From the IMG/VR virus record IMGVR_UViG_3300001598_000039, positions 1-64,000 of that record: 64,000 nucleotides of DNA, one strand, 5' to 3'. Source of the DNA: a virus (taxonomy: Duplodnaviria; Heunggongvirae; Uroviricota; Caudoviricetes). How positions within the stretch are numbered: position 1 is the first letter of the stretch; every line of letters starts with the position of its first letter. Under the pieces are notes generated by a model. That model did no database searches and was not told where the DNA came from. It was given only the letters and a program-made list of their open reading frames with translations. This document shows positions 4,740 to 20,177 of the stretch, piece after piece. The position numbers and the translations under genes were made by a program.

Positions 4740-4762
4740 AGCCTCAAAAGGAGATCACCGAC

Positions 4763-4934: not shown

Positions 4935-4964
4935 GGCCTCGTAACGCAAGAAAGGACCAACCAG

Positions 4965-5099: not shown

Positions 5100-5129
5100 G
5101 TTAACAAGCGGCCTAGACTTTGTTATAAT
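5096..5129 (+). promoter_or_regulatory. Class I early promoter; leaderless spacing (ATG 5136 is 6 nt after TATAAT)
   Basis: CTAAGTTAACAAGCGGCCTAGACTTTGTTATAAT AGCCTC ATG. Confidence 0.7.
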
Positions 5130-5135
5130 AGCCTC

Positions 5136-5834: not shown

Positions 5835-5860
5835 CAGAGCGAGCGGACTTTGTTATAATA
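5826..5860 (+). promoter_or_regulatory. Class I early promoter
   Basis: CTTAAGTTAACAGAGCGAGCGGACTTTGTTATAAT; the upstream gene's stop codon lies inside the box. Confidence 0.75.
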
Positions 5861-5891
5861 GCCTTGTCAAACGACAGACAGGAACTAGAAG

Positions 5892-6128
5892 ATGCCTAAG
5901 AGCAAGACGCCGGCGGAAGCCAAAGCCAAGAAGAAGGAAGCAGCCATGGAGAAGAGCCTGACGGCCCTCAAGGAAGCCAAGAGCATGCTTGGCACTCTCC
6001 TTGACGAATGTGAGCGCTTCAACGATGAGGTCGCTGAGCCCGACTGGTACCTGCGAGAGGACTACGAGAAGGCGGTCAAGTGCATCGACTCAGCCCTGCG
6101 GGCGATCAGCCTTGTCCAGAAGGCCTAA
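5892..6128 (+). CDS. Hypothetical early protein (78 aa)
   Basis: Class I promoter, GGAAC RBS. Confidence 0.65.
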   Translation: MPKSKTPAEAKAKKKEAAMEKSLTALKEAKSMLGTLLDECERFNDEVAEPDWYLREDYEKAVKCIDSALRAISLVQKA

Positions 6129-6158
6129 GTTAACAAGAGGCCGGAAGTTTGTTATAAT
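6125..6158 (+). promoter_or_regulatory. Class I early promoter
   Basis: CTAAGTTAACAAGAGGCCGGAAGTTTGTTATAAT. Confidence 0.7.
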
Positions 6159-6212
6159 AGTCACGTCAGCCGGAATACGGCAAAAACCAACAAAAACAAG
6201 GAGAAAGCAGAG

Positions 6213-6407
6213 ATGAAGTTCTACAACATGGGCAAGAAGGCGCTCAAGCATGATGTCAAGTGCGGCACGAAGGTCGTGATCCCGGCCGGCACGAAGAACG
6301 TCAAGATCGCCTTCCGCCAGAGCCACCTGACCCGCATCGATGACGAGACCGGCAAGGTTGTGAACATGAACGTGTACATGGTTGGCAGCAAGGTGTTCCA
6401 CGCCTAA
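6213..6407 (+). CDS. Hypothetical early protein (64 aa)
   Basis: AAGGAGAAAG RBS; terminator downstream. Confidence 0.65.
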   Translation: MKFYNMGKKALKHDVKCGTKVVIPAGTKNVKIAFRQSHLTRIDDETGKVVNMNVYMVGSKVFHA

Positions 6408-6453
6408 GCCAAATACGCTTTCAAGCGACGAGGACGGCAACCCCTCGACTCAC

Positions 6454-6495
6454 GGCCCGCTAGCCAGACCATCCAGCTAGCGGGCCATTTATGTC
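6454..6495 (+). terminator. Rho-independent terminator (GGCCCGCTAGC...GCTAGCGGGCC then ATTTATGTCTC), followed by a (CT)6 microsatellite
   Basis: 11-bp perfect stem. Confidence 0.65.
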
Positions 6496-6518
6496 TCTCT
6501 CTCTCTCCTTCCAGGCGC

Positions 6519-6553
6519 CTTAAGTTAACACGGCCGCGCTCTTTTGTTATAAT
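6519..6553 (+). promoter_or_regulatory. Class I early promoter
   Basis: CTTAAGTTAACACGGCCGCGCTCTTTTGTTATAAT. Confidence 0.7.
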
Positions 6554-6600
6554 AGCACTGTCCGCCGGAAACGGCAAACCAAGCAAAAAGGAGAAAGCCA

Positions 6601-6705
6601 ATGCCTAGCAACAAGACCGGAACGATTGCTGACTACTACCGTGACATGACCCCTGAGCAGGCCAAGCGCGAGCTTGAGGCCCTGTATGCCGGGAAAGCTG
6701 TATAA
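6601..6705 (+). CDS. 34-aa peptide
   Basis: AAAGGAGAAAG RBS after the class I promoter. Confidence 0.4.
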   Translation: MPSNKTGTIADYYRDMTPEQAKRELEALYAGKAV

Positions 6706-6764
6706 TAGACCATGACGCCGGTGATGGCGTTACGCTGACAAAAAGCCACCAGTTCGCAGCGGAT

Positions 6765-6808
6765 AGCCAGTCGGAGTACACGAACCACTCCGGCTGGCTT
6801 CTTTTTTG
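6765..6808 (+). terminator. Rho-independent terminator (AGCCAGTCGGAGT...ACTCCGGCTGGCT then T7)
   Basis: 13-bp stem plus T-run. Confidence 0.7.
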
Positions 6809-6822
6809 CTTCCAGCCCAAAG

Positions 6823-6857
6823 CTTAAGTTTACAGGAGCCAGCGGCTTTGTTATAAT
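6823..6857 (+). promoter_or_regulatory. Class I early promoter (TTTAC variant), leaderless to ATG 6864; duplicate of the 8292 copy
   Basis: CTTAAGTTTACAGGAGCCAGCGGCTTTGTTATAAT GGCCTC ATG. Confidence 0.7.
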
Positions 6858-6863
6858 GGCCTC

Positions 6864-7157
6864 ATGAGAGCGAACGTCAAAGAAGCCAACAAGCACCTCC
6901 TCAAGGCCATGAAGCCTTGCTACTTCGACCACATCCCGGTCGCCGAGATCCAGGCTGTCCTGAAGGAGCACCAGATCATGCTGGTGAATGAGGACGGAAC
7001 ACCATTTGAAGCCATCTTCTGCGGCCGCTCCGGACATACCCTGATTGACCTAGCGATCTGCGGTGTGTGCGGCGCCGTAGTTGACAACCACAAGCTCTTC
7101 CTCAGCTGGTACACCATGCCGAGCGGGCGCTATGAGATCACCACTTACCTGAGCTGA
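6864..7157 (+). CDS. Hypothetical early protein (97 aa), Cys-rich C-terminus
   Basis: Leaderless. Confidence 0.65.
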   Translation: MRANVKEANKHLLKAMKPCYFDHIPVAEIQAVLKEHQIMLVNEDGTPFEAIFCGRSGHTLIDLAICGVCGAVVDNHKLFLSWYTMPSGRYEITTYLS

Positions 7158-7161
7158 GCGG

Positions 7162-7196
7162 CTTAAGTTAACGCCGTCACCAGACTTTGTTATAAT
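7162..7196 (+). promoter_or_regulatory. Class I early promoter
   Basis: CTTAAGTTAACGCCGTCACCAGACTTTGTTATAAT. Confidence 0.7.
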
Positions 7197-7231
7197 GCTG
7201 CTGTCAACCGAAACTGAAAGGAAACATTAAA

Positions 7232-7426
7232 ATGCTTCGCAAGTACACGAACGAACTGCTAGAGAGAGTTGAAGCTGGAGAGCTGACCGCGGACGAAGTC
7301 CTGCGCTCGCTTGTCGATTTCCTGCCTGAGGACACCGTCGAGGAGTTCTGCATCAACGGCGACTACGCCGAGCTCTTCGAGGATGAGGAGGACGAGGACA
7401 TCGAAGAGGCCGACGACGAGGAATAG
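7232..7426 (+). CDS. Highly acidic 64-aa protein (C-terminal EDEEDEDIEEADDEE); DNA-mimic candidate
   Basis: Track ORF; own promoter; TAG stop. Confidence 0.6.
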   Translation: MLRKYTNELLERVEAGELTADEVLRSLVDFLPEDTVEEFCINGDYAELFEDEEDEDIEEADDEE

Positions 7427-7432
7427 CCCAAG

Positions 7433-7467
7433 CTTAAGTTAACGTCAGCTCGGCGACTTGATATAAT
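7433..7467 (+). promoter_or_regulatory. Class I early promoter (-10 region TTGATATAAT)
   Basis: CTTAAGTTAACGTCAGCTCGGCGACTTGATATAAT. Confidence 0.65.
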
Positions 7468-7502
7468 CATCTCATCGGACGAACCAAACAAAAGGCCAAC
7501 CA

Positions 7503-7700
7503 ATGAACCTCAGCAAGACCGACAAGTTCAACTTCATCTGCTACGGCTTCTGCGCCCTGACCGCACTTGCAGCGCTCATCTGCCATCTGGCGAACGGCGG
7601 AAGCATCACCAGCACCGGGCATCTCAGCGCGGCATGCGGCTGGGTCGTCGCGATTGCTGAGTCGCTCCATCGCATTGCCGACCGGAATGATGAGCCTTAA
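7503..7700 (+). CDS. 65-aa putative membrane protein
   Basis: Track ORF; hydrophobic core. Confidence 0.55.
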   Translation: MNLSKTDKFNFICYGFCALTALAALICHLANGGSITSTGHLSAACGWVVAIAESLHRIADRNDEP

Positions 7701-7730
7701 GTTAACGCCAACGCGCCAGTTTGTTATAAT
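7696..7730 (+). promoter_or_regulatory. Class I early promoter
   Basis: CTTAAGTTAACGCCAACGCGCCAGTTTGTTATAAT. Confidence 0.7.
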
Positions 7731-7802
7731 AGCAACGTAACGGAACACAAGAGCAACACTGAAACAACAAATCACAAACCCAACCGAAAGGAACGAAAGA
7801 CA

Positions 7803-8222
7803 ATGAACGAGACGAACACGAACGAGACCACCCAGAAGCAGACGAACAATGAGGTCTGGAAGCAGATCCGGGCCCTTGGCAAGGAGAAGAAGGCGAAGCG
7901 CGCCGAGGTCGTCAAGGCCGTCGACAAGCTCTGGGCCGACTATGCCAAGTGGCGCGACGAGGAGTGCGCCACGAAGATCGCGGAGCTCCGCAAGTTCATC
8001 ACAGACCGCCATGACGAGCGCGTCGCCAAGCGGGCCAACCGCGAGGCTGACAAGGCCAAGAAGGCCGAGGAGAAGGAGGCCAAGGCCAAGGAGCGCGCCG
8101 AGAAGAAGGCGAAGCGCGAGGCTGAGAAGGCTGCCAAGGCTGCCGAGAAGGCCGCGGCCAAGGCTAAGAAGGCGGAGGAGAAGGCTGCTGCCAAGGCCGC
8201 TAAGGCTGCCGAGGCCAAGTAA
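7803..8222 (+). CDS. Histone H1-like Lys/Ala/Glu-rich protein (139 aa) with AKKAEEKAAAKA repeats
   Basis: Composition resembles H1/Hc1/AlgP-type KA repeats; terminator downstream. Confidence 0.65.
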   Translation: MNETNTNETTQKQTNNEVWKQIRALGKEKKAKRAEVVKAVDKLWADYAKWRDEECATKIAELRKFITDRHDERVAKRANREADKAKKAEEKEAKAKERAEKKAKREAEKAAKAAEKAAAKAKKAEEKAAAKAAKAAEAK

Positions 8223-8250
8223 GACGCCAACCTGACCACATGTTTCCTAT

Positions 8251-8279
8251 GGCCGGTCCGCAAGGACCGGCTTTCTTTG
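8251..8279 (+). terminator. Terminator hairpin (CCGGTCC...GGACCGG then CTTTCTTTG)
   Basis: Stem plus T-rich tail. Confidence 0.55.
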
Positions 8280-8291
8280 CCTCTGCCAAAG

Positions 8292-8326
8292 CTTAAGTTT
8301 ACAGGAGCCAGCGGCTTTGTTATAAT
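8292..8326 (+). promoter_or_regulatory. Class I early promoter (identical over ~45 bp to the 6823 copy)
   Basis: CCAAAGCTTAAGTTTACAGGAGCCAGCGGCTTTGTTATAAT. Confidence 0.7.
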
Positions 8327-8350
8327 AGCCACAGAAACGGAGATCCCAAC

Positions 8351-8632
8351 ATGCCAGACAAGGTCTACTTCATCTCGAACGACAGCGGCTTCCTCATGCG
8401 GAAGGGAACGCCCAAAGGCAAGCCCATGTTCAGGCAATGCTCGAACCCGGAGAAGGCATGGTGCACAGCCAACCGTGACGAAGCCGAGACCAAGGCCGCT
8501 GAGCTGCGTCGCAAAGGCTACATCAACAAGTGGCGCGACGGAGACGGCATCTGCGAGGTCAACAACAGCGACCATATCTTCGACGACTGCCTCGCCCTTA
8601 ACCAGCCCGCCAATGAGCCGAGCCACTCATGA
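8351..8632 (+). CDS. Hypothetical early protein (93 aa)
   Basis: Track ORF with GGAG RBS. Confidence 0.65.
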   Translation: MPDKVYFISNDSGFLMRKGTPKGKPMFRQCSNPEKAWCTANRDEAETKAAELRRKGYINKWRDGDGICEVNNSDHIFDDCLALNQPANEPSHS

Positions 8633-8722
8633 GCGCCAAGCCAATGGAGCTAACATCCGCCGGCCAAGTGAGGGCCTCATGAGCTCCAAGGCAAGTCTAG
8701 ATGAAAGCCAAAGCTGAGCGGC

Positions 8723-8757
8723 CTTAAGTTAACGCAAGCCAAGACCTTTGTTATAAT
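8723..8757 (+). promoter_or_regulatory. Class I early promoter
   Basis: CTTAAGTTAACGCAAGCCAAGACCTTTGTTATAAT. Confidence 0.7.
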
Positions 8758-8790
8758 AGCGCTGTCACAAACCTCCAGAAGGAGAACGAA

Positions 8791-9000
8791 ATGCCAAACA
8801 CCAAAGCCAAGCCCGCAGACCTCAAGCGCCAGCAAGCCAACAAAGCCATTGTCGCCAAGCTCGCCGAAATGGTTGAAGCCCATCCTGAGCTCCGCTTCCA
8901 ACAGATCCTCCAGGACATGGACATCATCAAGCCTAGCGAGGACCGCTTCTATGAGGAGCCGGACGTCACGCTCTCCCGAATGCTCGACTTCATCGCTTAG
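8791..9000 (+). CDS. Hypothetical early protein (69 aa)
   Basis: AAGGAGAAC RBS. Confidence 0.65.
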   Translation: MPNTKAKPADLKRQQANKAIVAKLAEMVEAHPELRFQQILQDMDIIKPSEDRFYEEPDVTLSRMLDFIA

Positions 9001-9013
9001 CCTGGACAGCAGA

Positions 9014-9048
9014 CTTAAGTTAACGAAGCCAAGAAGCTTTGTTATAAT
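9014..9048 (+). promoter_or_regulatory. Class I early promoter
   Basis: CTTAAGTTAACGAAGCCAAGAAGCTTTGTTATAAT. Confidence 0.7.
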
Positions 9049-9086
9049 CTTGCCAGAAACGGCAACCTAACTGAAAGGATGAAACA

Positions 9087-9203
9087 ATGCTGAAGCTCAT
9101 AGACCGAATCTTCTCCGGAATCCAAGACCTGGCGCAGTCCTGTCCCGAGTCCGCTAAGGCAGTCGACTTCATGTTCTCCTCAACATCTCACAACTTTGCC
9201 TGA
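9087..9203 (+). CDS. 38-aa peptide
   Basis: AAAGGATGAAAC RBS; not in track. Confidence 0.4.
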   Translation: MLKLIDRIFSGIQDLAQSCPESAKAVDFMFSSTSHNFA

Positions 9204-9207
9204 ACCA

Positions 9208-9435
9208 ATGAAAGCCATCATCCTCATAGCCATTCTAGCCGTCGCCGGCTTCCTGCTGTCGAACCGCTACAACCATGCTGACCTCCATCAAGACCATGAG
9301 GCGCTAGCAAGCCATGTCTTCGCGCTCGAGGCTATCGCCGAAGACACGAATGCCAGAGTCCGCGACAACCAAGCCAAACTCACCAAACTCCTGCAGATCG
9401 CCGAATCCTGCCGGAACCAAGACCTTGACCGCTAA
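9208..9435 (+). CDS. 75-aa N-terminally membrane-anchored protein
   Basis: Internal ATG of track ORF 9196..9435; MKAIILIAILAVAGFLL. Confidence 0.5.
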   Translation: MKAIILIAILAVAGFLLSNRYNHADLHQDHEALASHVFALEAIAEDTNARVRDNQAKLTKLLQIAESCRNQDLDR

Positions 9436-9465
9436 GCCTAGACTTCCAATTTCTCCTTGCCCGTG

Positions 9466-9668
9466 CATCCACGCCTGCGTGGCGCGCGCCTGCGCGCGTT
9501 CTAGGAATATCTATCTAGGTTTAAGATATAATAGGAGAAGATAGGATAGGATCTTATTATTTTTAGAAGTCTAGGTTTAGAATCTAGATTTTTTAAGAAT
9601 CTAGGTCTTAAGAATCTAAACTTAAAGTCTTTAGAAGTTTAACGCATGCGAGCACGCCTGCGCGCGTA
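9466..9668. repeat. AT-rich (~25% GC) 143-bp island carrying TCTAGG / AGAATCTAG iterons, bounded by GC-rich direct repeats CACGCCTGCGCGCG
   Basis: Seen directly; no ORF. Confidence 0.6.
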
Positions 9669-9671
9669 AGG

Positions 9672-9706
9672 CCTAAGTTAACAGAAGCCGGACAGTTTGT
9701 TATAAT
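9672..9706 (+). promoter_or_regulatory. Class I early promoter
   Basis: CCTAAGTTAACAGAAGCCGGACAGTTTGTTATAAT. Confidence 0.7.
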
Positions 9707-9751
9707 CCTACTGTCGCAAACCTCTGGAACTTAGTGAAAGGACTAAAGCCA

Positions 9752-10189
9752 ATGTCGGAGAACCACGCCCATTATTTGCCCGCCAATCTCCCGCCTAGCA
9801 TCAAGGCCAAGCTCGATGCCGGCGAGCGCCTTTCTGGACCACTCTTCGTCGGCCAAGGCTTCACCCACTCCGTTGGATCTGACTCCTATGGCGGCTACGT
9901 CGTCTCCATCGCTACCCTCCCGAACCGCAAGCCTATCGTCGGCCTTGTCTCCGCCGACAGCGTCATGCACGGCGACTGGACCGAAGGCACGATGGACAAC
10001 AGCGTTGACCTCGCCCAAGCCAAGCCCGAACAATGGATCACCACCTACGGCAAGAACAAAATCACAGGCGCGCCCAAGTGGTGGTTCTGCAGCGCAACCG
10101 GCGACCGCAAGAATCCTGTTGGCTACCGCATCGGCAAGTGCGGCTACTCCTGGAACGGCGCCTACTCCTACCGCGACCCCTCTTTCTGA
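9752..10189 (+). CDS. Hypothetical early protein (145 aa)
   Basis: ATG with AAAGGA RBS; the track start at 9734 is GTG. Confidence 0.6.
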   Translation: MSENHAHYLPANLPPSIKAKLDAGERLSGPLFVGQGFTHSVGSDSYGGYVVSIATLPNRKPIVGLVSADSVMHGDWTEGTMDNSVDLAQAKPEQWITTYGKNKITGAPKWWFCSATGDRKNPVGYRIGKCGYSWNGAYSYRDPSF

Positions 10190-10201
10190 GGCCAACCGCC
10201 G

Positions 10202-10230
10202 GGCTTCCGAGGCCCTCACCTTCGGAAGCC
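10202..10230 (+). terminator. Hairpin (GGCTTCCGA...TCGGAAGCC)
   Basis: 9-bp stem. Confidence 0.45.
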
Positions 10231-10361
10231 AATAATTCTATCATCCCACCCGCTCCTAATCCGCTCGGCTTCTCCAGCCAACCTTCCGTGCAACCCAATC
10301 CTAAGGCCGGCGAATGCAAAGCCAAACCTTGCGCGCCTGCGTAGCGCGCCCGAGCGCGAAG

Positions 10362-10396
10362 CCTAAGTTAACGAGACCCCATGCCTTTGTTATAAT
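10362..10396 (+). promoter_or_regulatory. Class I early promoter
   Basis: CCTAAGTTAACGAGACCCCATGCCTTTGTTATAAT. Confidence 0.7.
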
Positions 10397-10441
10397 AGCA
10401 CTGTCATCAAGCTCCAGAACTTAATGAAAGGACCAAACCAA

Positions 10442-10558
10442 ATGGACAACCCCTACCGCACCAACTATGCCCTCCTCTTCCTCGCCGGCCTTGCAACCGC
10501 GGTCCTCGTAAACCTGACTGCCTTCCTCATCGGCATGTCCGTCATCCTCGCCCGCTAA
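10442..10558 (+). CDS. 38-aa membrane peptide
   Basis: AAAGGACCAAAC RBS; hydrophobic. Confidence 0.4.
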   Translation: MDNPYRTNYALLFLAGLATAVLVNLTAFLIGMSVILAR

Positions 10559-10577
10559 CCAACAAGGAATCTAGACC

Positions 10578-10829
10578 ATGACCACTACCCCTACTCCCAT
10601 CGCCCTTCCCGTAGGCCTTCTTGCCCTCGAATCCACCTCGTCCATAGGCCGCACCTGCATCACCACTCCAGGCCGAGCGCTGACTGGCTGGGACATCTTC
10701 TTCCGCCTCGCCGACGCCTCTGGCATGCAGCCCAACGACTTCGGCAACGCCTACGATCCCCTTGTCTGCTGCGACCATGTCATGCTCGACACGCGCCTGC
10801 TAGCGCCTACGACACGCCCGAGCGCATAA
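10578..10829 (+). CDS. Hypothetical protein (83 aa)
   Basis: AAGGAA RBS. Confidence 0.5.
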   Translation: MTTTPTPIALPVGLLALESTSSIGRTCITTPGRALTGWDIFFRLADASGMQPNDFGNAYDPLVCCDHVMLDTRLLAPTTRPSA

Positions 10830-10902
10830 CGACGCGCGACAGGCCTTCCTCGGCTGCCAGCCAAGCCATCCTTCAACCTAGCCAGGCAGCTAGGCGACAG
10901 GC

Positions 10903-10937
10903 GCTAAGTTAACAAAAAGCACCAGGCATGTTATAAT
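10903..10937 (+). promoter_or_regulatory. Class I early promoter (degenerate -10 region CATGTTATAAT), leaderless spacing to ATG 10944
   Basis: GCTAAGTTAACAAAAAGCACCAGGCATGTTATAAT. Confidence 0.55.
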
Positions 10938-10943
10938 ACAAGC

Positions 10944-11186
10944 ATGCAGGACAGCCACATCCAAACCTATGAGGCCACTAGCCGGACCCTAGACCCTACC
11001 CGGCTATACCAAGCCTTGCGAGCCAGGCAGCTAGCCAACGATCCAGAGGCCAAGCAGTCAAGCTCGCCGGACAGCCTAGCGCCAGACCCTAGCCTGCTGC
11101 CCGAGGCCAACCTGTCAGCCAGCCAACCGCGGGTCCTAGGGCCTGGCCGACAGCCCGGCGACCGGTCCGAGGGCTTGTTAACTTAA
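10944..11186 (+). CDS. Doubtful ORF (80 aa, low complexity, CTAG-rich); may be a non-coding early transcript
   Basis: Repeats AGCCAGGCAGCTAG; ends at the 30-bp palindrome. Confidence 0.25.
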   Translation: MQDSHIQTYEATSRTLDPTRLYQALRARQLANDPEAKQSSSPDSLAPDPSLLPEANLSASQPRVLGPGRQPGDRSEGLLT

Positions 11187-11203
11187 GGCCTTAAGTTAAC
11201 AAG
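11174..11203. repeat. 30-bp perfect palindrome CTTGTTAACTTAAGG|CCTTAAGTTAACAAG, i.e. two facing class I -35 boxes; a third box without a -10 sits at ~11230-11247
   Basis: Seen directly. Confidence 0.8.
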
Positions 11204-11299
11204 GCATGTGCCAGGTGAGCCGAAAGCCTAAGTTAACAAGGCCATCCGGGCTGTGCCCGGCTAGCCAGGTGCCCGGGTGACGCGGGTTATAGGGCTGGC

Positions 11300-11520
11300 G
11301 CCAGGTGTCCTGGACTGGTCGTGGTGTCCAGGAGGTGTCCAGGGGGTGTCCAGTGGTTAGAGTCTGGCGTAGTTGGATGGTCGCGTATGGCGTATGGTGT
11401 ATGGTGTGTCTCGCGCTTAGCGCTTAGAGAGAGAGTCTGATGTGCAAGTGTATGGCGCCTAGTGTCTAGCATCTGGAGTATGGCTTAGCGCTTAGCGGCA
11501 TCAATGGCTTTCTACATAGT
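11300..11520. repeat. Short tandem repeat cluster: GGTGTCC(A/T)G x4, (C/T)GTATGG x3, CGCTTAG x2 (twice), (AG)5
   Basis: Seen directly inside a ~930-bp non-coding GT-skewed region 11190-12125. Confidence 0.7.
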
Positions 11521-12111
11521 ATTGGCCTAGTCTCTGCATGTGTCCGTCTGTGTATGCTTGCCTGCGTAGGCGATCTTTTTAGTCAGGCCTTGTTTGTAAG
11601 CCTTTGCCTTCAGTTGCTAGCATGAGTCTAGATCACTAGCATGTCTTTGGTGTATGCTTCTATGTCTGCTATGGCCTATGTTGTCTAGTGTGTTTCCCTG
11701 GGTAGCGGGCATTCCTCCAGGCCTATACCTAGTACCTCTCTGGCGAGGTTCTTCAATTGGGCCTAGTCTTGGCGTGAAGTGGTCATCCTTCTTTTTGCTA
11801 TGGGCCTTTTCACTGCTGTTGGTTTGGTTTCGGCCCTGGACTGGGAAGCCTGAATTTGAAGTTTGGGGTTTCTTGGCATGGGACAGCTGGCTTGCGTTAA
11901 ATAAAGTCTAGCAAGGAAAGGCTAGCTTATGAGGATCAAGGAGTATTTGAACGCGGGTGGGTTTCGGCTGGAGAAGGTTGCGGTTGACTTGGACAAGGTT
12001 GACTGCATCTAGAAGCCATTAGAAGATGGCATTGGCTGCATTGTCGTCATCTAGGGCCAGAAGTACCCGGTACGAGAGAGCTATGAGGCGGTCTTGAGGG
12101 ACTTGGCTGGC

Positions 12112-12122
12112 GAGGGTAAATA
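12112..12122 (+). promoter_or_regulatory. Class III late-like motif GAGGGTAAATAA, 5 nt before ATG 12128
   Basis: Consensus (A/G)(A/G)GTAAATA(G/A) shared by 8 sites. Confidence 0.5.
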
Positions 12123-12127
12123 ATGGC

Positions 12128-13045
12128 ATGATGACGCAACAGCAGTTGAACTACGCCTATTGGCAGAGGATGCGGCAGCAGGAGCTGTACCGCAGGTATC
12201 GTGCTACGATGATGGGAGGGCAGTCGGCGCCTGAAAGGTATGTGAAGGTCGCGTTTGCGATGTCTGGCGGAGAAGGCCAGATCATGTGCGAGGGCGTAGA
12301 TGTGGGGACATCGGGCAAGATGGTCGCGGTTGGTGGAAGTGTGACTGTCGAGGCGAAGCCGGCGCCTGGGTATCGGTTTGTGCGGTGGAAAGATGATGCT
12401 AGCGCTGGTGCGGTGAGGACGTTCAGCAATGTCGTCGAGGACACGTCGGCGGAAGTCGAGCTGGAGTACACGCAGTCTGAGGCTGGGCTTTGGACGGAGA
12501 CTTGGGAGGGCGTGACACGGATCTTTGAGCGGCATCCAGGATGCAGAGACAACTGGGAGCTGCTGAAGTCCGACGGGTCGCATGACCCAATGACATGCGT
12601 CGTCTACAACCCATCGCGCGGAGCGTGGATGTATGAGGATGCTGGGTCTCCTTACCATTCGGCGGAGGCCAAGCGGACGGACCGGGCGTTTGACGTCGAT
12701 GTCCCAGAGGGAGAAGGACGAGTCGCTCGGACGATCCATTTCGTCTGGACGGCTACGCCGGACGCTGCGATGCTGACAGTCAAGGCATTTGAGGATGGCC
12801 ATCAGGCTGAGTCTGAGGACTTGGTCTTGGAGAACATCCGATATGACGAGGGCGACCCGAAGCGCAGGCTCAGCTACAACACGCCGTGGCTGATGCAGAA
12901 GGGCCAGGAAGTGACGTTGAAGGCTTCGGGCAAGAATGGCATGCAGTTCAGCCATTGGGAAGACAGCAGCACGTCGCCGACGCGTGACGTCACAATGGAC
13001 AGCGCCAAGTCTTTGGAAGCGCACTTCGTCTACAGGAAGCCGTAA
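12128..13045 (+). CDS. Late protein (305 aa) with N-terminal leader MMTQQQLNYAYWQRMRQQELYRRY shared with the gene at 35970
   Basis: Track ORF; paralogous N-terminus. Confidence 0.7.
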   Translation: MMTQQQLNYAYWQRMRQQELYRRYRATMMGGQSAPERYVKVAFAMSGGEGQIMCEGVDVGTSGKMVAVGGSVTVEAKPAPGYRFVRWKDDASAGAVRTFSNVVEDTSAEVELEYTQSEAGLWTETWEGVTRIFERHPGCRDNWELLKSDGSHDPMTCVVYNPSRGAWMYEDAGSPYHSAEAKRTDRAFDVDVPEGEGRVARTIHFVWTATPDAAMLTVKAFEDGHQAESEDLVLENIRYDEGDPKRRLSYNTPWLMQKGQEVTLKASGKNGMQFSHWEDSSTSPTRDVTMDSAKSLEAHFVYRKP

Positions 13046-13057: not shown

Positions 13058-13423
13058 TTACGCGCCGAAGTCCGGACGGACTTTGAATAGGGCCTTGAGG
13101 TAGTTGGCTATCAAGCCGAAGTACTGAGGCCCATATCTTTTGGCGTCATGCTCGAGGATGCTTGAGAAGGCTTCACGGCAGTCGATCGGGCCTATGGCTT
13201 TGAGGCCTTTGAGCGAGAGGTCTAGGAAAGCTTGGGCTGCGGTCTGGAAGCCTTGCTGCCGAGGGCAGGAGAGGATGTAGGCGGAATGCGGCCAGCCGGC
13301 GTCATTCTTGACGTAGGTGAAGGCGAGGAAAGGCACATGGCCAGGCATAGAGGTGAAGTCGACGACTACGGCTTGGCATGGCGGCTTGGCGCAGAGAGTA
13401 GACAGCTGGATGTTGGCGCTCAT
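13058..13423 (-). CDS. Hypothetical protein (~121 aa), last gene of a 7-gene coupled operon
   Basis: Start at internal ATG overlapping the upstream stop (ATGA). Confidence 0.5.
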   Translation of the reverse strand: MSANIQLSTLCAKPPCQAVVVDFTSMPGHVPFLAFTYVKNDAGWPHSAYILSCPRQQGFQTAAQAFLDLSLKGLKAIGPIDCREAFSSILEHDAKRYGPQYFGLIANYLKALFKVRPDFGA

Positions 13424-13953
13424 AGACTTGTTTCGGCAGCGAGGGTTGCGAGTTCGGCGTGCAGGTTCTGGCAAGCAAGGGCGGCTGATGCCCATGGCAC
13501 GTCTTCAGCTTGGTAGGAATGGATGGCTTTGGATGCGTCGACGCCATAGAGCATGGAGCATTCGAGGCACGACTTGGCGTAGGCGCTGTGCGTTGCGCAT
13601 GTGAGGAGCGTAGCTGCATAGAAGCTATGCGGCATGGTGGTGCCATAGTCATCTTTGCATGCGGTGCAGGATTCATAGTTGGCATAGCCGAAGAGCAGGG
13701 TGAACGGCGAAGTAGGGTGCTTGCAGTGGATGGCGAATGGCGCAGCTTGAGTGGCGGTGTAGCGCTGCACTGGAGAGACGGCGTCCCAAGTCCGCTTGAC
13801 TGACATGAACTCTTGGCGCGCCTTGAAGATCGTGCTGCTCTGCTCCCAGGTCAGGCTTTCGGCGGAGATCTTCCCATCACGCTCGGCTGGAGTGAAGTGG
13901 CTGCCGGCGATCTCCCATCCAAGCAGCTGGAATGGCTGGATTGCGATGCTCAT
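13420..13953 (-). CDS. Hypothetical Cys-rich protein (177 aa)
   Basis: ATGA overlap coupling. Confidence 0.55.
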   Translation of the reverse strand: MSIAIQPFQLLGWEIAGSHFTPAERDGKISAESLTWEQSSTIFKARQEFMSVKRTWDAVSPVQRYTATQAAPFAIHCKHPTSPFTLLFGYANYESCTACKDDYGTTMPHSFYAATLLTCATHSAYAKSCLECSMLYGVDASKAIHSYQAEDVPWASAALACQNLHAELATLAAETSL

Positions 13954-14420
13954 CTGCCGAATGCCCTCTCAATAGCGTGGACGGCTGAACGCGCAGCATC
14001 ATGCAGGGCGTCGATGATTGTTTGGCGAAGCAATCCAGTGTTGGCATACATGCAACCATCATTGAACTTTTTGGTGTGGACAGCTGCAACTAGCGCTTCT
14101 TCTTTGCTCTTCTTGACGTACTGCTCAGTCGTGACTACTGGCAAGTTTGGGTCTTCGCCTCTCACTGACAGCTCCATGCGCAACTGCGCGATGCTTGACC
14201 ATACCTTTGCCATGTCTGGCACAGCGCTGTAGCCAATGCCGTCGAGCGACTTTGACGTCGCTTGGTAGGTGCAGATGCAGGCATAGCCGCTTGCGTCAAG
14301 CAGAATGAACGGGCTCAGCTCAGAGTCCGAGTGGAGTGGCGGGACGGCCGATGATGACGGCATGCGCGACGTCTGGGTTGCGCTTGGTGATGGCGGCTGC
14401 TGTCTGCTAGTCTGCTGCAT
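13950..14420 (-). CDS. Hypothetical protein (156 aa)
   Basis: Overlapping coupling. Confidence 0.5.
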   Translation of the reverse strand: MQQTSRQQPPSPSATQTSRMPSSSAVPPLHSDSELSPFILLDASGYACICTYQATSKSLDGIGYSAVPDMAKVWSSIAQLRMELSVRGEDPNLPVVTTEQYVKKSKEEALVAAVHTKKFNDGCMYANTGLLRQTIIDALHDAARSAVHAIERAFGR

Positions 14421-14877
14421 AGATGGCCTTCAGGCTCTTGCATTGGCTGAAGACGCCGTGTTCGGCCTCTTCAAGGTGTGGAGGGAGCTCGATGATCTCA
14501 AGAGCCGAGCAGTTGGCAAAGGCGTAGCAGCAGATCTTGGTGATGCTGTCTGGGAGCTTGACGAGCTTGAGCTTGGTGCAATGGGCAAAGATGAATGCCG
14601 GAAGCTCGGTGATGCGCGCTTTGACTGTTGCTCGCTGCAGTCGCCTACATCCGAGGAAAGCCTCTTGCCCGATGCTTTCAACTGTCTTCGGGATGGTGAC
14701 TGCCTGCAAGCCGCTGAACTTGGCGAGCGCGCCGTCTTCGAGGCGCTTGAGAGCAGCCGGGACCTTAGCGGACGTAGCTGCACGCTTGATGTCATCTGAT
14801 GTCGCGTACCGGCTTAGGCTAGCCGTGCTGCCAAGCACTTGTGCCAGCACTTCGTTTGGAGTCTGCATCTTAGGCAT
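14407..14877 (-). CDS. Leucine-rich-repeat protein (BspA-type LRR)
   Basis: Repeats of the type AFANCSALEIIELP / VFSQCKSLKAI. Confidence 0.6.
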   Translation of the reverse strand: MPKMQTPNEVLAQVLGSTASLSRYATSDDIKRAATSAKVPAALKRLEDGALAKFSGLQAVTIPKTVESIGQEAFLGCRRLQRATVKARITELPAFIFAHCTKLKLVKLPDSITKICCYAFANCSALEIIELPPHLEEAEHGVFSQCKSLKAIYAAD

Positions 14878-15430
14878 TATTTACGTCCTGGAGCTGGTGC
14901 ATCTTCACTGCTAGGTTAGACAGGCGGTCAGAAAGGCGGAAGTCAGAGAGGACTGCTTCTGCCCATAAGATTTCTGGCACTTGGTGCTGCTCGATGAAGT
15001 GGCTTGGGTCAAGGCCCGTCTTCAGTTGCGATGTGATGCAGGCCTTAGCGTACTCAGCTGGAGTGAAGGCGTCAATGAGGTGCATCTGGTAGAAGCTGCT
15101 TGTCATGTCAGCGTCATGCTCATCCTTGAACTTGCCACATGTGAAGACACTAGAGTCAGCGAAGAGCAGCATGTAAGGCATGACTGGATGGCCGACCTTG
15201 ACGATGAACGGCCTGCGCCTTGTCCTAGACCTCAACTGGACTGCTGAAGTCTTCCCATCATGGAGGCCGTACAACGGGCAGCTGAAGGCGTTAGAGCAGT
15301 CCAGCCACTCACGGTACATCTTGCCATAGAATGCCTTGTGCATGGCGCACTCATAGCTCTCGCAGTGCTCGTTCGTCACGAGGTCGACTTTGAAGCCGAA
15401 CAAGTGGAAGACCTTGCTTGAGCTATTCAT
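14870..15430 (-). CDS. Hypothetical protein (~186 aa)
   Basis: Start moved to ATG with AAGGAGAA RBS. Confidence 0.55.
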   Translation of the reverse strand: MNSSSKVFHLFGFKVDLVTNEHCESYECAMHKAFYGKMYREWLDCSNAFSCPLYGLHDGKTSAVQLRSRTRRRPFIVKVGHPVMPYMLLFADSSVFTCGKFKDEHDADMTSSFYQMHLIDAFTPAEYAKACITSQLKTGLDPSHFIEQHQVPEILWAEAVLSDFRLSDRLSNLAVKMHQLQDVNNA

Positions 15431-15713
15431 AGCAGTTCTCCTTGAACCAATACCTTCTGGCCAGATGTGTCTTGTTCCACGGATCAACGTGAGCAGGATT
15501 GATGCAGACGACATGCGGCCAACGCTCGACATCTTCCAAGTCAGCGCCATTTGCTGCAAGGAACTTCATGCACAGCTCGTCAGACGCAAAGTGCGCAACT
15601 GTCTCATAGATGCCGCTTGGCTCTCTTGCCTGGCGCAGCTCATATGCTTTAAGCGGCGCTTCGCTGCACCATCCGCAGACAATCCTGTATGTTCTGTACT
15701 TGTGCCTGATCAT
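15423..15713 (-). CDS. Hypothetical Cys-containing protein (96 aa)
   Basis: ATGA coupling. Confidence 0.5.
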   Translation of the reverse strand: MIRHKYRTYRIVCGWCSEAPLKAYELRQAREPSGIYETVAHFASDELCMKFLAANGADLEDVERWPHVVCINPAHVDPWNKTHLARRYWFKENCYE

Positions 15714-16332: not shown

Positions 16333-17562
16333 TCAGACCTTGAGCTCGACCAGGAAGTGGATCGTCGTCTGGTCTTCGCGATAGACCACCACCTCATCTT
16401 CACGGAGGTATGGGCCTTTATGGGCATGCACATGCGTTGTGCCAGGCTTGCGTTTTTGCAGCTTGTCCCATGTCATGCCGCTGCAGCTGCTGATCTCACT
16501 TCCGGTGCTGACGTTCAAGGCGCCCTTGTCTTCATCGACAGCGACGTCGAACACCGCCATCAGGCCGACATCAGACGTGCCACCTGACCAATACGAACCA
16601 CGAAGCGATGTGTAGTTGATGGACTTCGCCGCTTTTGGTGCAAAGTAAAGGCCCGCGCCCAACATTTTTCCAGTTACGTGGGCGTTGTTCTTGAGCAGCA
16701 GCCCATTCTTGATGATGTTCCACCAGTTCTCATTGCGCGAGCCGTGGAAGAACATCTTCGGCTCTTTGACGCCGTTGCTGCGGCAGAAGGCGTCAAACTT
16801 GTCCTGCGTCGTCTTGTTGATGATCCGCCAGGCCTGCTTGTAGCGAGAGCCAACCATGCCAAGGTGCTTGACGATCTGGTCTTTCTCCTGGTCGGTGACT
16901 TTGCGGAAGTCCAAGCCGAACTTCTCCAAGATCGTCTCTGTCTTTGACGAAGCGCCATCGCCGTTTGTCTTGGCCTTTGCAGCATTCGTCTCGAACTGCG
17001 TCTTGACGATGTTGAAGAGGTTCTGCTCGCGAGTCAAGATCGAAGGGATGTCGCTGTTGCTCTTGGCGAAGAACTTCGAGACGTCCGTCATCTTACGAGG
17101 CAGCGTACGGAAGAGCGTCATCAGCGTATCATTGAAGGACTTGTAGTCGCCGTCCTGCGTGTACAGCTTGTCGATCAGCTCTTGCGCCTTGTCGATCATG
17201 GTCTGCGTGATGTGGCCTTCATCAATGGTGTAGTTCTTCTTGATGACCTCATTGGCGTAGACACGCAGCTGCTTGACGAACTTGCGGACATCGACGTCTT
17301 GGATGTCGGCAAAGCCATCTGCACCGGTGCTGACTGAGCCATCGTCCTTCTTGACGAGCTCAGTCTGGTCGACGTAGCCTTTCTTCAGCTTGTTCTTCAG
17401 GATGCGGTCATACTCTTTGGCGTCATAGTGCTGGGTCGAAGGGTTCTGCCCGCCAATGCGCCCGTACTTCACCATGAAGCCGTTTCCGTCGGTGTCTGGC
17501 TGGATCTCATAGAACTTGTTGTTGTTGGCGCTTGTGACGCAGACTAAGTACTTGGCTTCCAT
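16333..17562 (-). CDS. Poly(ADP-ribose) polymerase-like protein (WGR domain plus PARP catalytic domain)
   Basis: N-terminal WGR (KYGRIGG); catalytic FFHGSRNENWWNIIKNGLL...GAGLYFAPKAAKSINYT. Confidence 0.8.
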   Translation of the reverse strand: MEAKYLVCVTSANNNKFYEIQPDTDGNGFMVKYGRIGGQNPSTQHYDAKEYDRILKNKLKKGYVDQTELVKKDDGSVSTGADGFADIQDVDVRKFVKQLRVYANEVIKKNYTIDEGHITQTMIDKAQELIDKLYTQDGDYKSFNDTLMTLFRTLPRKMTDVSKFFAKSNSDIPSILTREQNLFNIVKTQFETNAAKAKTNGDGASSKTETILEKFGLDFRKVTDQEKDQIVKHLGMVGSRYKQAWRIINKTTQDKFDAFCRSNGVKEPKMFFHGSRNENWWNIIKNGLLLKNNAHVTGKMLGAGLYFAPKAAKSINYTSLRGSYWSGGTSDVGLMAVFDVAVDEDKGALNVSTGSEISSCSGMTWDKLQKRKPGTTHVHAHKGPYLREDEVVVYREDQTTIHFLVELKV

Positions 17563-17597
17563 TTGTTAGGTCTTTCTGTATGTCAGGTGGTATGCTG

Positions 17598-17609
17598 CTA
17601 TTTACTTCT
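17598..17609 (-). promoter_or_regulatory. Class III late-like motif GAAGTAAATAG upstream of the PARP gene (35-nt leader)
   Basis: Matches the class III consensus. Confidence 0.5.
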
Positions 17610-18107
17610 TCAGTGGAACGCTTGCTGATGCTCAGGATTGCTGGCATTGAGCTTGTCGTACTTGAGGACAAGACAGTTGATGATGGAGTCTGAGACGAAC
17701 GATGGTGTCGTGAAGCTGCTGCTCAGCGCCATGACTTTGGTAATGACTTCATACTGCTTGAGGAAGTGGTCGTACTGCGACGACTCAACAAGGTCAGTCA
17801 AGAACCATACTTTGGTTGGAGGCATGAGCTTGAACTTGACTAGTGACTCATATGACCATGTCCGCCAGTGCGCGTTTGCCTGGTATCGCTTGCATGCTCT
17901 GATGTATTGGGCGACCAAGTCGACAAAGCCATCTGCGTCGAGTCCGCCTGCCAAAGAGACGTACAGCGACACTTCAGCTCTAGACTCAAACGTCAGCTGT
18001 GCCACTTTTGAGCCTCGCTCTCTTCTTCTCGATCTCCTGGAGCGCTCGCTCAAAGTATGCCGTCCGAGCACGGTCTCCGCCATCCCATATGAGCTTCTTC
18101 TCCTCAC
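17610..18107 (-). CDS. Hypothetical protein, C-terminal part; possibly the +1-frame continuation of 17986..18426
   Basis: Protein-like only downstream of the overlap; the Arg-rich N-terminus is probably not translated. Confidence 0.4.
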   Translation of the reverse strand: MRRRSSYGMAETVLGRHTLSERSRRSRRRERGSKVAQLTFESRAEVSLYVSLAGGLDADGFVDLVAQYIRACKRYQANAHWRTWSYESLVKFKLMPPTKVWFLTDLVESSQYDHFLKQYEVITKVMALSSSFTTPSFVSDSIINCLVLKYDKLNASNPEHQQAFH

Positions 18108-18426
18108 GGAGCATGCTCTTGAAGATGTTCAGGAACTTCACTCCGCTGATCAAAAGGTCAAAGAAGTCTGTCTCGAGAGCCGTCTGCAGCAAGTACTCAT
18201 TGTTGTCCGGCATGACCTCTTTGTACTGTATCGCCTGCGCATCGCGCTCTTTGACACGCTGGTCAGTGTAGGCCTTGAACTCCCGCGAGTACTTCGCCTG
18301 CTCTCTGAAGAAGCCAACAAGCTCGAGTGCGGAGAACAGAGGCGCACCAGCAAGAGCATACCTCATGCTGAACTCAGGCATAGACTTGCTGCTAGTCAGG
18401 TGCTCGTAGAGTTGGCGGTTCTTCAT
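17986..18426 (-). CDS. Hypothetical protein (146 aa), leaderless
   Basis: TGATACAAT ATGCCAT ATG architecture. Confidence 0.6.
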   Translation of the reverse strand: MKNRQLYEHLTSSKSMPEFSMRYALAGAPLFSALELVGFFREQAKYSREFKAYTDQRVKERDAQAIQYKEVMPDNNEYLLQTALETDFFDLLISGVKFLNIFKSMLREEKKLIWDGGDRARTAYFERALQEIEKKRARLKSGTADV

Positions 18427-18453
18427 ATGGCATATTGTATCACGCGGGCGCGT

Positions 18454-18465
18454 AGAAGTAAATAG
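18454..18465 (+). promoter_or_regulatory. Class III late-like motif TAGAAGTAAATAG, 8 nt before ATG 18473
   Basis: Consensus match. Confidence 0.5.
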
Positions 18466-18472
18466 TCCTACT

Positions 18473-19003
18473 ATGGCAAAGTCACGCTACTTCAAGTTCT
18501 ACAACGCCAACCCATTTGGCAAAGCTCTTCCAGACTGTGCAATCCGCAGCACCAGCTTAGGCCTGAACATCCCTTATGCTGAAGTCTGCAAGCGCCTACA
18601 CTGCCGGTTCAAAGATGGACAAGGGCTTGTACGTGACACCGGAGTCGACCTCTACAAGATCCAGGACACCTTCGACAAGTACTTCGAGGAAGTGGAGAAC
18701 TTTGACTCTGAGCTGAACCGCCCGCCTGAGTTTGATGACTTCGTTGACCCATTCTACGACACCGGCGAGTTTGAGGACATCAGCAACCAGCCTACGCTTG
18801 AAGAGTGGATCGAGCAGTATGAAGGAACAGGCCCTTATCTGGTGAGCCTTGATTCGCCAAAGCGTGACAGCGGCCATCTGGTCTACGTCTGTACCAACAC
18901 GCCATGCTTCTATGACACATGGGACTGCTCTAAGCTCCATGTTGATGCCTTCATGCGGATCAAAGGGATCCGCGACAACGAGGCGACGAAGAACTACCGC
19001 TGA
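18473..19003 (+). CDS. Hypothetical acidic protein (176 aa)
   Basis: Track ORF. Confidence 0.6.
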   Translation: MAKSRYFKFYNANPFGKALPDCAIRSTSLGLNIPYAEVCKRLHCRFKDGQGLVRDTGVDLYKIQDTFDKYFEEVENFDSELNRPPEFDDFVDPFYDTGEFEDISNQPTLEEWIEQYEGTGPYLVSLDSPKRDSGHLVYVCTNTPCFYDTWDCSKLHVDAFMRIKGIRDNEATKNYR

Positions 19004-19332
19004 CCGAGTTCGGCTAAGAACTTTGACGCCTTTGTGCTGATCACCGACGTGCCGCCAGTCTCAAGGTCCCATGTCTTGAACAGGCCTTGAAGTTGGATGA
19101 GGCTGTCTATGACCATTCCTTTGCTGAGGCCATGCTTAGTGCTCATCAGCATAGCATATTCCGCAGCAGTCTCGCAGTCAAGCACCGACTTGAAGACATC
19201 ACAGACTTCCATTGTGATAGCGCTGCCATCGCCACTCAAGCGCGGCTCATGGACTGGAACTTCGCCAATGTCTCTGGCATAGTTGCGCGTGGCGACATGC
19301 CTCCAATCAGCTGGCTTGAAGTCAGAGCTCAA
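18994..19332 (-). CDS. Hypothetical protein (112 aa)
   Basis: Track ORF; coupled to the upstream gene. Confidence 0.55.
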   Translation of the reverse strand: MSSDFKPADWRHVATRNYARDIGEVPVHEPRLSGDGSAITMEVCDVFKSVLDCETAAEYAMLMSTKHGLSKGMVIDSLIQLQGLFKTWDLETGGTSVISTKASKFLAELGQR

Positions 19333-19804
19333 TCCGCTGCTCCTTTGGAAGCGCCCAGACTTTCCTCCTGATCTTCAGCAGTTCAGGAAGCTCAATTGAA
19401 GTCTTGCCAGTTGCATAGGCGAACTTCAGCATCTTTTGGCCTACTTTTGATGTTGGGTCGTTCTTGAGCACATAGTCCTGCAGCTTTGTGTAGATGCCAT
19501 TAGGGTCACTGAGCATGCCATACTCGACCATCGCTTCGCACATGATGGCGGCGTGCTCGTCAGCAGATGGCTTCAAGAACTTCAGTTGGTTGAGCGCGGC
19601 GAAGAAGTGATTGACATAGTCTATGTTGAGATGCGCAAGCCCGGCGAACAGGTGCGCCAAGAAGCTCTTGTCTTGGAATGAGCATGTGACTCCATTCAAG
19701 CTGCACGTCATCTTGTACTTGGTGACGCTCATGTTGTGGTCCAAGTCTTCAGCTTGGGCAATGATGTCTCTGATGAGCCTGTTGATGTGCTGTTTGGCAG
19801 TCAT
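19322..19804 (-). CDS. Hypothetical protein (160 aa), leaderless (TGTTATAAT TGGAAC ATG)
   Basis: Extended -10 placed 6 nt before ATG. Confidence 0.6.
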   Translation of the reverse strand: MTAKQHINRLIRDIIAQAEDLDHNMSVTKYKMTCSLNGVTCSFQDKSFLAHLFAGLAHLNIDYVNHFFAALNQLKFLKPSADEHAAIMCEAMVEYGMLSDPNGIYTKLQDYVLKNDPTSKVGQKMLKFAYATGKTSIELPELLKIRRKVWALPKEQRIEL

Positions 19805-19893
19805 GTTCCAATTATAACACAGGCGCAGCTAGGTGTTCTGCCTAATTGCGCCGTTCACTTGTGACTATATGCCTAGTGCTCTTGGCGAGTGTC

Positions 19894-20166: not shown

Positions 20167-20177
20167 ATCATACCACT

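Follow-up and report, generated by a model that had tools for sequence, protein, structure and literature searches.

Leader shared by two unrelated phage proteins

Two proteins of an uncultivated phage begin with the same short leader and are otherwise unrelated, and comparison with other sequences supports the leader as a shared, selectable and portable N-terminal signal, which may serve as a docking or targeting tag. The window analyzed here is the whole stretch of 64,000 nucleotides (nt) that makes up positions 1 to 64,000 of the IMG/VR virus record IMGVR_UViG_3300001598_000039 (Caudoviricetes). Gene 1 lies at 12128-13045 and gene 2 at 35970-37247, both on the plus strand. An earlier note made from these letters (the original prediction) had described the two open reading frames (ORFs), their common N-terminus and the difference between their products, and this description was borne out. 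The sequence QQLNYAYWQRMRQQ[E/Q]LYR is located at the extreme N-terminus of both products, where 17 of 18 residues are identical. Beyond the leader the proteins are unrelated; gene 1 encodes a Flg_new_2/InlB B-repeat protein and gene 2 encodes an N-terminal nucleophile (Ntn) hydrolase.

The similarity of the two leaders is real, acts at the protein level and is present in two copies in the window. The leader-coding segments are located at 12128-12208 (+) in gene 1 (M1-T27) and at 35970-36047 (+) in gene 2 (M1-G26), and they score 51 and 53 bits, respectively, against a hidden Markov model of the leader, while the next best six-frame segment scores 5.8 bits. A degenerate pattern back-translated from the leader core matched exactly these two sites in the window, for an expectation of 0.00 from shuffled sequences. 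The DNA of the leader core is identical at 39 of 45 positions between the genes, and the differences within the 21 leader codons are synonymous in seven cases and non-synonymous in three. The DNA 5' of the two genes cannot be aligned except for a short GTAAATA motif. A fuzzy six-frame search revealed no third copy in the window, and no further copy was found in the extension of the genome that was reached via the proteins at the window edges, which contains replication genes only.

The leader in other phages

The comparative sample consisted of about ten short metagenomic contigs, whose proteins (P) and loci (L) are numbered below. A leader profile of 32 positions was searched against 1.84 billion representative proteins (E≤0.001). 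Five proteins were matched, every match begins at residue 1, and three of the five are new cargo types (P0013, P0014 and P0015). The cargoes therefore fall into five unrelated types, which are the InlB B-repeat protein (P0012), the bile-salt-hydrolase-like Ntn hydrolase (P0006 and others) and these three. The cargo of P0013 (121 residues) is a small beta domain of ~95 residues, which the hydrolase orthologue P0007 carries as a C-terminal extension (48% identity, E 7e-29). In P0014 (154 residues) a PPPP linker leads to a beta-rich domain of unassigned type, and P0015 reads on its contig through in-frame TAG codons into a BspA-type leucine-rich repeat (LRR) protein. The original prediction had named absence of the leader from all other phage proteins as one part of what would speak against it; the leader heads at least three further kinds of protein in related phages. 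Because it is found on five unrelated cargo types, always at residue 1, and is kept at the protein level, chance similarity is not the explanation that the sequences support.

The hydrolase orthologues P0003, P0004, P0006 and P0009 keep the leader in the form MT[DN]QQMQ[YF]AYWQR[MI]R..., and the peptide is retained on contigs whose GC content ranges over 38-53%, while many of its codons differ synonymously between them. More distant hydrolase orthologues (P0005 and P0008) have a diverged N-terminal helix of similar length, as would be expected if tag and partner co-evolve, which has been reported for the docking peptides of Klebsiella phages (PMC6872550).

Outside this sample the leader was not found. 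The degenerate DNA pattern gave 0 matches in IMG/VR, in a JGI metagenome subset and in the 185,579 bacterial and archaeal genomes of GTDB. tblastn with the leader gave no match in 50,697 GenBank phage records, and the leader profile had no significant match in the PDB. Since the pattern works on the window, the collections searched with it lack the lineage. The leader belongs to a small, rare lineage of uncultivated large phages that is seen in few sequencing runs; this phage and its relatives are present in SRR1221442, SRR9184935, SRR9184936, SRR9184573 and JGI 3300020112.

In relatives with a GC content of 41-42%, TAG is a sense codon (L009 445-2019 and 3-401; L004 1957-2782). In L009, TAG takes the place of the conserved Gln16 of the leader, and the database protein P0003 has Q there. 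In the BspA-LRR gene, TAGs are located at the same aligned position in L004 and L009. In this TAG-recoded lineage, a leader-LRR gene forms a tandem with a leader-hydrolase gene located 44 nt behind it. Under translation table 11 the window itself reads normally.

Structure of the leader

The consensus of the leader is M-T-x-Q-Q-[ML]-[QN]-Y-A-Y-W-Q-R-M-R-Q-Q-Q-L-Y-[RK]-x-Y-x-A-G. Its architecture is a helix (~residues 3-24), the conserved Y-[RK]-x-Y-x-A-G, a variable flexible linker rich in G, Q, P and T, and then the cargo. In the AlphaFold2 (AF2) model of the gene 2 product, the leader is a lone helix of residues 3-24 that is detached from the domain, with a predicted local distance difference test (pLDDT) score of 54-62, and it is followed by disordered residues 25-34. 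The helix has a hydrophobic moment of 0.03-0.07, a net charge of +3 or +4, five aromatic residues and seven or eight Gln/Asn residues. Being basic, rich in Tyr, Trp and Gln, and sticky nearly all round, the modelled helix is likely to be gripped by a partner. There are exceptions to the consensus in gene 1, whose protein has R-A-T-M-M-G-G in place of the conserved A-G. Glu is found in the leader of protein 1 alone (E19) and is not conserved.

Two familiar types of N-terminal segment were rejected. An amphipathic or coiled-coil helix does not fit the hydrophobic moment given above, and there is no heptad pattern. A Sec, Tat or lipoprotein signal peptide was rejected because the leader has no hydrophobic h-region; the maximum Kyte-Doolittle mean in the first 80 residues (15-residue window) is 0.65-0.85 and is reached at residues 64-65, outside the leader.

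The hydrolase encoded by gene 2

Gene 2 (35970-37247) encodes a protein of 425 residues with the N-terminus MNAQQLNYAYWQRMRQQQLYRAYVAGG. AF2, Foldseek and profile searches describe it as leader, linker and a choloylglycine-hydrolase/C45-like Ntn hydrolase proenzyme. The AF2 model (pLDDT 80, predicted template modelling score 0.84) has the alpha-beta-beta-alpha Ntn fold, and the top Foldseek matches in the PDB are bile salt hydrolases and penicillin V acylases (E 1e-11 to 1e-8, probability 1.00). In the family profile, the VDGVNEkG and MTNF motifs align to choloylglycine hydrolases of the PDB. N157 and N258 do not vary among 11 homologues, and C78, R89 and D92 hardly do. Cys78 (codon TGC at 36201-36203, +; GGM-C78-TGV) opens the beta strand E77-83 of the model and is the predicted N-terminal nucleophile. 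Conservation, the AF2 fold, Foldseek and the profile matches to the PDB thus support the Ntn hydrolase with a Cys78 nucleophile that had been proposed. The protein shares with C59 choloylglycine hydrolases and C45-IAT enzymes the fold, the Cys at a strand start and the R-x-x-D, DG.NE.G and TN motifs, and it shares with C45 proenzymes, to which its match is sub-threshold, an N-terminal pro/alpha segment before the Cys. It differs from both families in that it scores below their curated cut-offs (Pfam AAT, 15.1 versus 23.2 bits; NCBIfam C45_proenzyme, 23.7 versus 85; NCBIfam bile_salt_hydro, 18.6 versus 350) and in that its 77-residue N-terminal extension includes a detachable tag found on non-hydrolases. 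As it misses the curated thresholds, the gene 2 product is a divergent relative; its distant homologues P0010 and P0011 pass the CBAH/AAT thresholds. A BFVD fold search added nothing useful.

The hydrolase gene is located 1.2 kb from a gene for a SleB-like cell-wall hydrolase (33862-34731). In the unrelated 146-kb IMG/VR phage contig L005, an endolysin gene and a hydrolase homologue are neighbours (479-1006 and 1559-3415). These neighbourhoods hint at a cell-envelope substrate.

The Cys residues and processing

It had been proposed that the leader of both proteins is followed by a Cys and is removed to expose it. Cys54 of protein 1 and Cys78 of protein 2 are where they were said to be; however, they are 27 and 52 residues past the leader and do not follow it immediately. 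Exposure of a Cys as a common feature did not hold. Cys54 (codon TGC at 12287-12289, +; QIM-C54-EGV) lies inside the first B-repeat domain, since positions 14-65 of the Pfam profile correspond to residues 60-110 and position 1 falls at ~47. Judged by this alignment, Cys54 is an ordinary domain residue and not a processing site. In addition, no Cys is close to the leader in P0013 or P0014. 'M-C' was also rejected as a cleavage motif because the residue preceding Cys78 is not conserved; M, A, R or G is found before the hydrolase Cys among the orthologues.

The DNA between leader and Cys78 in gene 2 (36048-36200, +) was divided by AF2 pLDDT and conservation into a linker (residues 25-34, pLDDT 38) and a folded pro/alpha segment of the hydrolase (residues 35-77; pLDDT 81-90 for residues 35-70). 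The segment of residues ~33-77 is part of the hydrolase module; it is confidently folded, and its NSYDKIAKVSD..FLNY.EY sequence before Cys78 is also kept in the leader-less homologues P0010 and P0011. Because this segment belongs to the hydrolase module, and because other leader proteins have no Cys near the leader (P0013 and P0014) or have it inside a domain (protein 1), exposure of the Cys would be the predicted autoprocessing of the hydrolase itself, which would by itself neither need nor define the leader. The alpha chain of C45/IAT-type enzymes is folded with the core. As residues 35-77 of protein 2 are folded against its core, autoproteolysis need not release the tag. The hydrolase would be activated at Met77|Cys78 via its own Ntn autoproteolysis, and after cleavage the tag would probably stay attached to the hydrolase core non-covalently.

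The B-repeat protein encoded by gene 1

Gene 1 (12128-13045) encodes a protein of 305 residues with the N-terminus MMTQQQLNYAYWQRMRQQELYRRYRAT, in which leader and linker are followed by InlB B-repeat (Flg_new_2) domains flanking an unassigned middle region. The Pfam family PF18998 matches two stretches of it (E 1.1e-13). The true start is probably the second ATG, at 12131, because MTQQQL fits the family consensus MT[ND]QQ and the gene on a 93%-identical contig (L007) is called so. Gene 1 differs from L007 synonymously at 45 codons and non-synonymously at 12, and therefore gene 1 is under purifying selection. The codon usage of genes 1 and 2 is typical of the rest of the phage. By these sequence criteria gene 1 is a genuine gene. 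The protein has a single near-identical homologue among 5.8 billion proteins.

In a close relative, a Logan contig of 46,446 bp, the homologue of gene 1 is recorded as two pieces of 72 and 225 residues. This could be a frameshift, an assembly error or a strain-specific loss of function.

Function of the leader

We lean slightly towards the view that the leader is a docking or targeting tag for a partner in the virion, carried by late, virion-associated accessory proteins. That the partner is a virion component is inferred from the modules of hydrolase homologues, the types of cargo, the fibre block of the window, the motif common to that block and the leader genes, and TAG in a relative. Distant hydrolase homologues carry virion modules where the leader sits, namely the tail-fibre family phrog_5073 in P0010 and Phage_connect_2 (PF24829/phrog_4247) in P0011, and the homologue on L005 has a fibrous N-terminus of 270 residues in the leader's place. 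The remaining leader cargoes are binding modules typical of adhesins. The window also contains a tail-fibre-like block (46844-56612, +), recognized by its motif, fibre matches and repeats, which is a candidate source of the docking partner. It is led by ATTATAC..GTAAATA (46844-46875) and contains a classical LRR protein (50229-51278) whose best PDB sequence matches are BRI1 and internalin B, a gene with tandem fibrous LSxGLSGKID-type repeats (51317-54580), and a gene with a ~100-residue match to annotated tail fibre/spike proteins (54594-56612).

The description of the two products as late proteins, which was part of the original prediction, finds indirect support in the GTAAATA that their genes have in common with the fibre block and in the leader gene of a relative. 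This relative reads TAG as Gln, and its leader gene carries an in-frame TAG; in-frame recoded TAG codons are reported to be enriched in late and lytic genes (bioRxiv 10.1101/2021.08.26.457843; PMC9523058). As for the proposed targeting signal for the virion, the leader is portable, being found on five cargoes, and the virion role is plausible. The tag would bring accessory proteins to one common virion partner, most probably the tail/fibre apparatus or the particle surface. On the same site the phage would plug adhesin-like modules (B-repeat, LRR and small beta domain) and an amidase, and the tagged genes would apparently be expressed from the promoter type of the fibre genes.

Several observations weigh against a docking tag of the virion. 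The leader helix has only moderate model confidence in protein 2, and the AF2 model of protein 1, made from an alignment of two sequences, is unusable (pLDDT 38), with a helix of residues 4-29 predicted at low confidence. The two leader genes stand by themselves, one at 12.1 kb and one at 36.0 kb, outside the fibre block (46.9-56.6 kb), unlike the genes of receptor-binding proteins with docking peptides, which usually sit inside the fibre cluster. No capsid, portal, protease or T4gp10-like docking domain is recognizable in the window; for the T4gp10-like domain, Pfam, PHROGs and PDB sequence searches of the window gave no match. Several cargoes are small (121-154 residues) and closer to T4 internal proteins than to trimeric receptor-binding proteins. 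That the hydrolase adjoins a cell-wall hydrolase or endolysin gene here and in L005 fits a role in lysis too. Finally, the leader family is tiny, so the comparative power is low.

The small cargoes are also compatible with a capsid-targeting sequence (CTS) of the T4 type, which we consider rather unlikely. Here the leader would bind the scaffold or core, the cargo would be packed in the prohead and ejected with the DNA, and a prohead protease would remove the leader, perhaps at the conserved Y-x-A|G. Diverse cargoes with only a short N-terminus in common, encoded by dispersed variable genes, are what is seen in T4 internal proteins (PMC3012670), a basic and aromatic leader could suit binding to DNA or to the scaffold core, and the leader ends in the small residues A-G. 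However, protein 1 lacks this A-G, a Glu-type cleavage motif is absent, and the linkers are long and rich in Pro and Thr. The B-repeat protein, the LRR protein and the hydrolase with its links to virion modules look extracellular or adhesive and not like injected effectors. Furthermore, no gene for a prohead protease or scaffold is visible in the window, and nothing in GenBank phages resembles the leader in sequence.

A more elaborate form of the docking tag is doubtful. In this form the leader would be a transplantable tag for loading or display on the virion in a clade of gut-type large phages and would carry the hydrolase into or onto the particle as an inactive proenzyme. Autoproteolysis at Met77|Cys78 would then switch the amidase on and at once free it from its anchor, and internalin-like modules (B-repeat and LRR) would be exchangeable on one site. 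If true, this would be a plug-and-play host-range system with no sequence relationship to the T4 CTS or to docking of the T4gp10 type.

It is still less probable that the leader is a hetero-oligomerization tag of a non-virion complex, such as a cell-wall lysis complex made of the amidase and separate binding subunits. Some endolysins have extra free binding subunits. The SleB-like gene beside the hydrolase gene and the endolysin gene beside the L005 homologue agree with such a complex, and so does the beta domain that is both fused to a hydrolase and found alone behind the leader. Gene 1, however, is far from the lysis genes, the distant hydrolase homologues are fused to virion modules and not to lysis modules, and there is no holin or export logic for these proteins, which have no signal peptide. 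A non-classical export signal, which would send the cargo outside the infected cell or to its surface, is very unlikely: the cargo modules are typical of bacterial surface proteins, and the leader of P0015, which ends exactly at ...AAG-C in front of a BspA-like domain, gives the impression of standing in for a lipoprotein signal peptide, but the leader has neither a hydrophobic segment nor a twin-arginine motif plus h-region, and no host proteins use it, given its absence from the bacterial and archaeal genomes searched.

Comparison with known systems

The T4 CTS is ~10 residues long, and the prohead protease cuts it off behind a Glu. It is like the leader in that a short N-terminal peptide is the sole common part of unrelated proteins (IPI, IPII, IPIII and Alt) whose genes are dispersed. 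The leader differs in its length of ~25 residues, in having no conserved Glu, and in ending with Y-x-A-G plus a long linker. There is no sequence similarity between the two, and the cargo described here looks adhesive or enzymatic and external. The T4 CTS is an extreme N-terminal address label on diverse, fast-evolving proteins and can be transplanted to foreign cargo (PMC3012670).

Docking peptides have been described in phages K1-5, K1E, SP6 and G7C and in the Klebsiella phages KP32, KP34, Menlow and PhiK64-1, where a conserved N-terminus plugs proteins into a common anchor (PMC6872550; PMC13352976). The proteins consist of an anchor peptide, an enzymatic domain and a C-terminal domain, and truncated cargo that bears only the peptide exists (PMC6872550; PMC13352976). 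As with the leader, a conserved N-terminal peptide is found on different proteins, and its sequence differs between phage groups. Proteins with docking peptides, however, are trimeric tailspikes or depolymerases of large size, and their genes belong to the structural cluster, where a neighbouring gene encodes a protein with a T4gp10-like domain. The genes with the leader stand alone, their cargo is small or not beta-helical, searches for a T4gp10-like domain gave no match, and the leader peptide has a basic and aromatic character. By analogy, the leader may function like the T4 CTS or the docking peptides, but it is a member of neither family, because there is no sequence relatedness and no Glu-type site, the genes are outside the structural cluster, and no T4gp10-like anchor was detected.

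Head propeptides of giant phages are, to our knowledge, not one shared sequence but are defined by the protease motif S/A/G-X-E, which is absent from the leader. In large phages (phiKZ, 201phi2-1 and SPN3US), many virion proteins have N-terminal regions with a role in assembly (PMC5694885).

If the leader is an address label, accessory proteins that cannot otherwise be annotated would be assigned to one assembly of an uncultivated phage lineage. With its ~25 residues it would also be a compact handle by which foreign proteins could be loaded or displayed on such phages, a use to which the T4 CTS and the Klebsiella docking peptides are already put. Address-label modularity would have arisen again with an unrelated sequence, joined to internalin-like modules and a bile-salt-hydrolase-like amidase, and such an amidase active on the virion would itself be new. 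The very small size of the family and the putative nature of the function limit the immediate impact.

Promoter-like motifs

GTAAATA is found at nine sites in the window (1303, 2969, 12116, 14878, 17599, 18458, 32499, 35957 and 46869), where 1.2 are expected. Eight of the nine are correctly oriented with respect to a gene that starts 0-40 nt further 3', frequently with a spacing of just 5-10 nt to the ATG. At the ninth (1303-1309, minus strand) no gene is called immediately 3', and there is only a short uncalled ATG at a distance of 10 nt. The genes behind GTAAATA include a PARP-like gene, an LRR_5 gene, the first fibre gene and both leader genes, and the motif is also 5' of the leader genes on L001-L004. 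In gene 1 it lies at 12116-12122 (+), 5 nt upstream of the start (8 nt if the start is 12131), and is kept in L007. In gene 2 it is part of a bipartite element, ATTGTAC-N10-AAGTAAATA, at 35940-35963 (+), 6 nt upstream. An ATT[AG]TA element (ATTGTAC or ATTATAC) precedes four GTAAATA sites by 8-30 nt (at 18434, 32477, 35940 and 46844). GTAAATA resembles the T4 late promoter TATAAATA.

An ATG only 5-10 nt past the motif suggests near-leaderless mRNAs. This spacing, seen in several cases, and the constant association of the leader with GTAAATA would suit one further explanation, in which the leader is a passenger, either the start of the hydrolase propeptide copied with its promoter by illegitimate recombination or an RNA-level element such as an mRNA 5' signal. 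This is highly improbable, since synonymous substitutions dominate and the peptide is kept over a 15-point GC difference, the leader is on five cargo classes, other GTAAATA genes have no leader, and L001 and L002 have untranslated leaders of 40-100 nt and yet retain the peptide.

A second motif, TAAGTTAAC, has 33 matches in the window, where 4.0 are expected, and 30 of them lie in 1-11240. Their strand switches from minus (up to 3542) to plus (from 3579), and nearly every small gene is preceded by one. This arrangement suggests that 1-11240 comprises divergent early genes, each with its own promoter. Five copies of TAAGTTAAC and a 28-nt near-palindrome (11161-11216) are located in 10190-12127, which is 1.9 kb of ORF-poor DNA with a GC content of 57-58% directly 5' of gene 1. 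No tRNA or Rfam match was found within 10190-12127. Stop-codon recoding was rejected as the cause of its low ORF content, as no single reassignment rescues an ORF.

Other features of the window

In the fibre block, an ORF of 1077 residues probably starts at ~46908 (MSTYT...), and a protein of 1087 residues likewise begins with MSTYT. tblastn against GenBank phages gave no match for the 1077-residue protein or the gene 2 protein, and blastn with the region was also empty.

Downstream of gene 1, four end-to-end or overlapping ORFs are located at 13420-15550 on the minus strand. One of them encodes a BspA-type LRR_5 protein (14407-14877) and has its own GTAAATA. The run may be a fragmented or frameshifted larger surface-protein gene.

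Gene content unusual for a phage is found at 16333-32187, 37250-44850 and 57300-63458. It includes genes for a WGR+PARP-like protein, a DnaJ, a MoxR-type ATPase with a VWA/metallopeptidase partner, a DUF2828/DUF7788 VWA protein and an NAD-dependent DNA ligase, as well as two clusters of glycosyltransferase and rhamnose-pathway genes.

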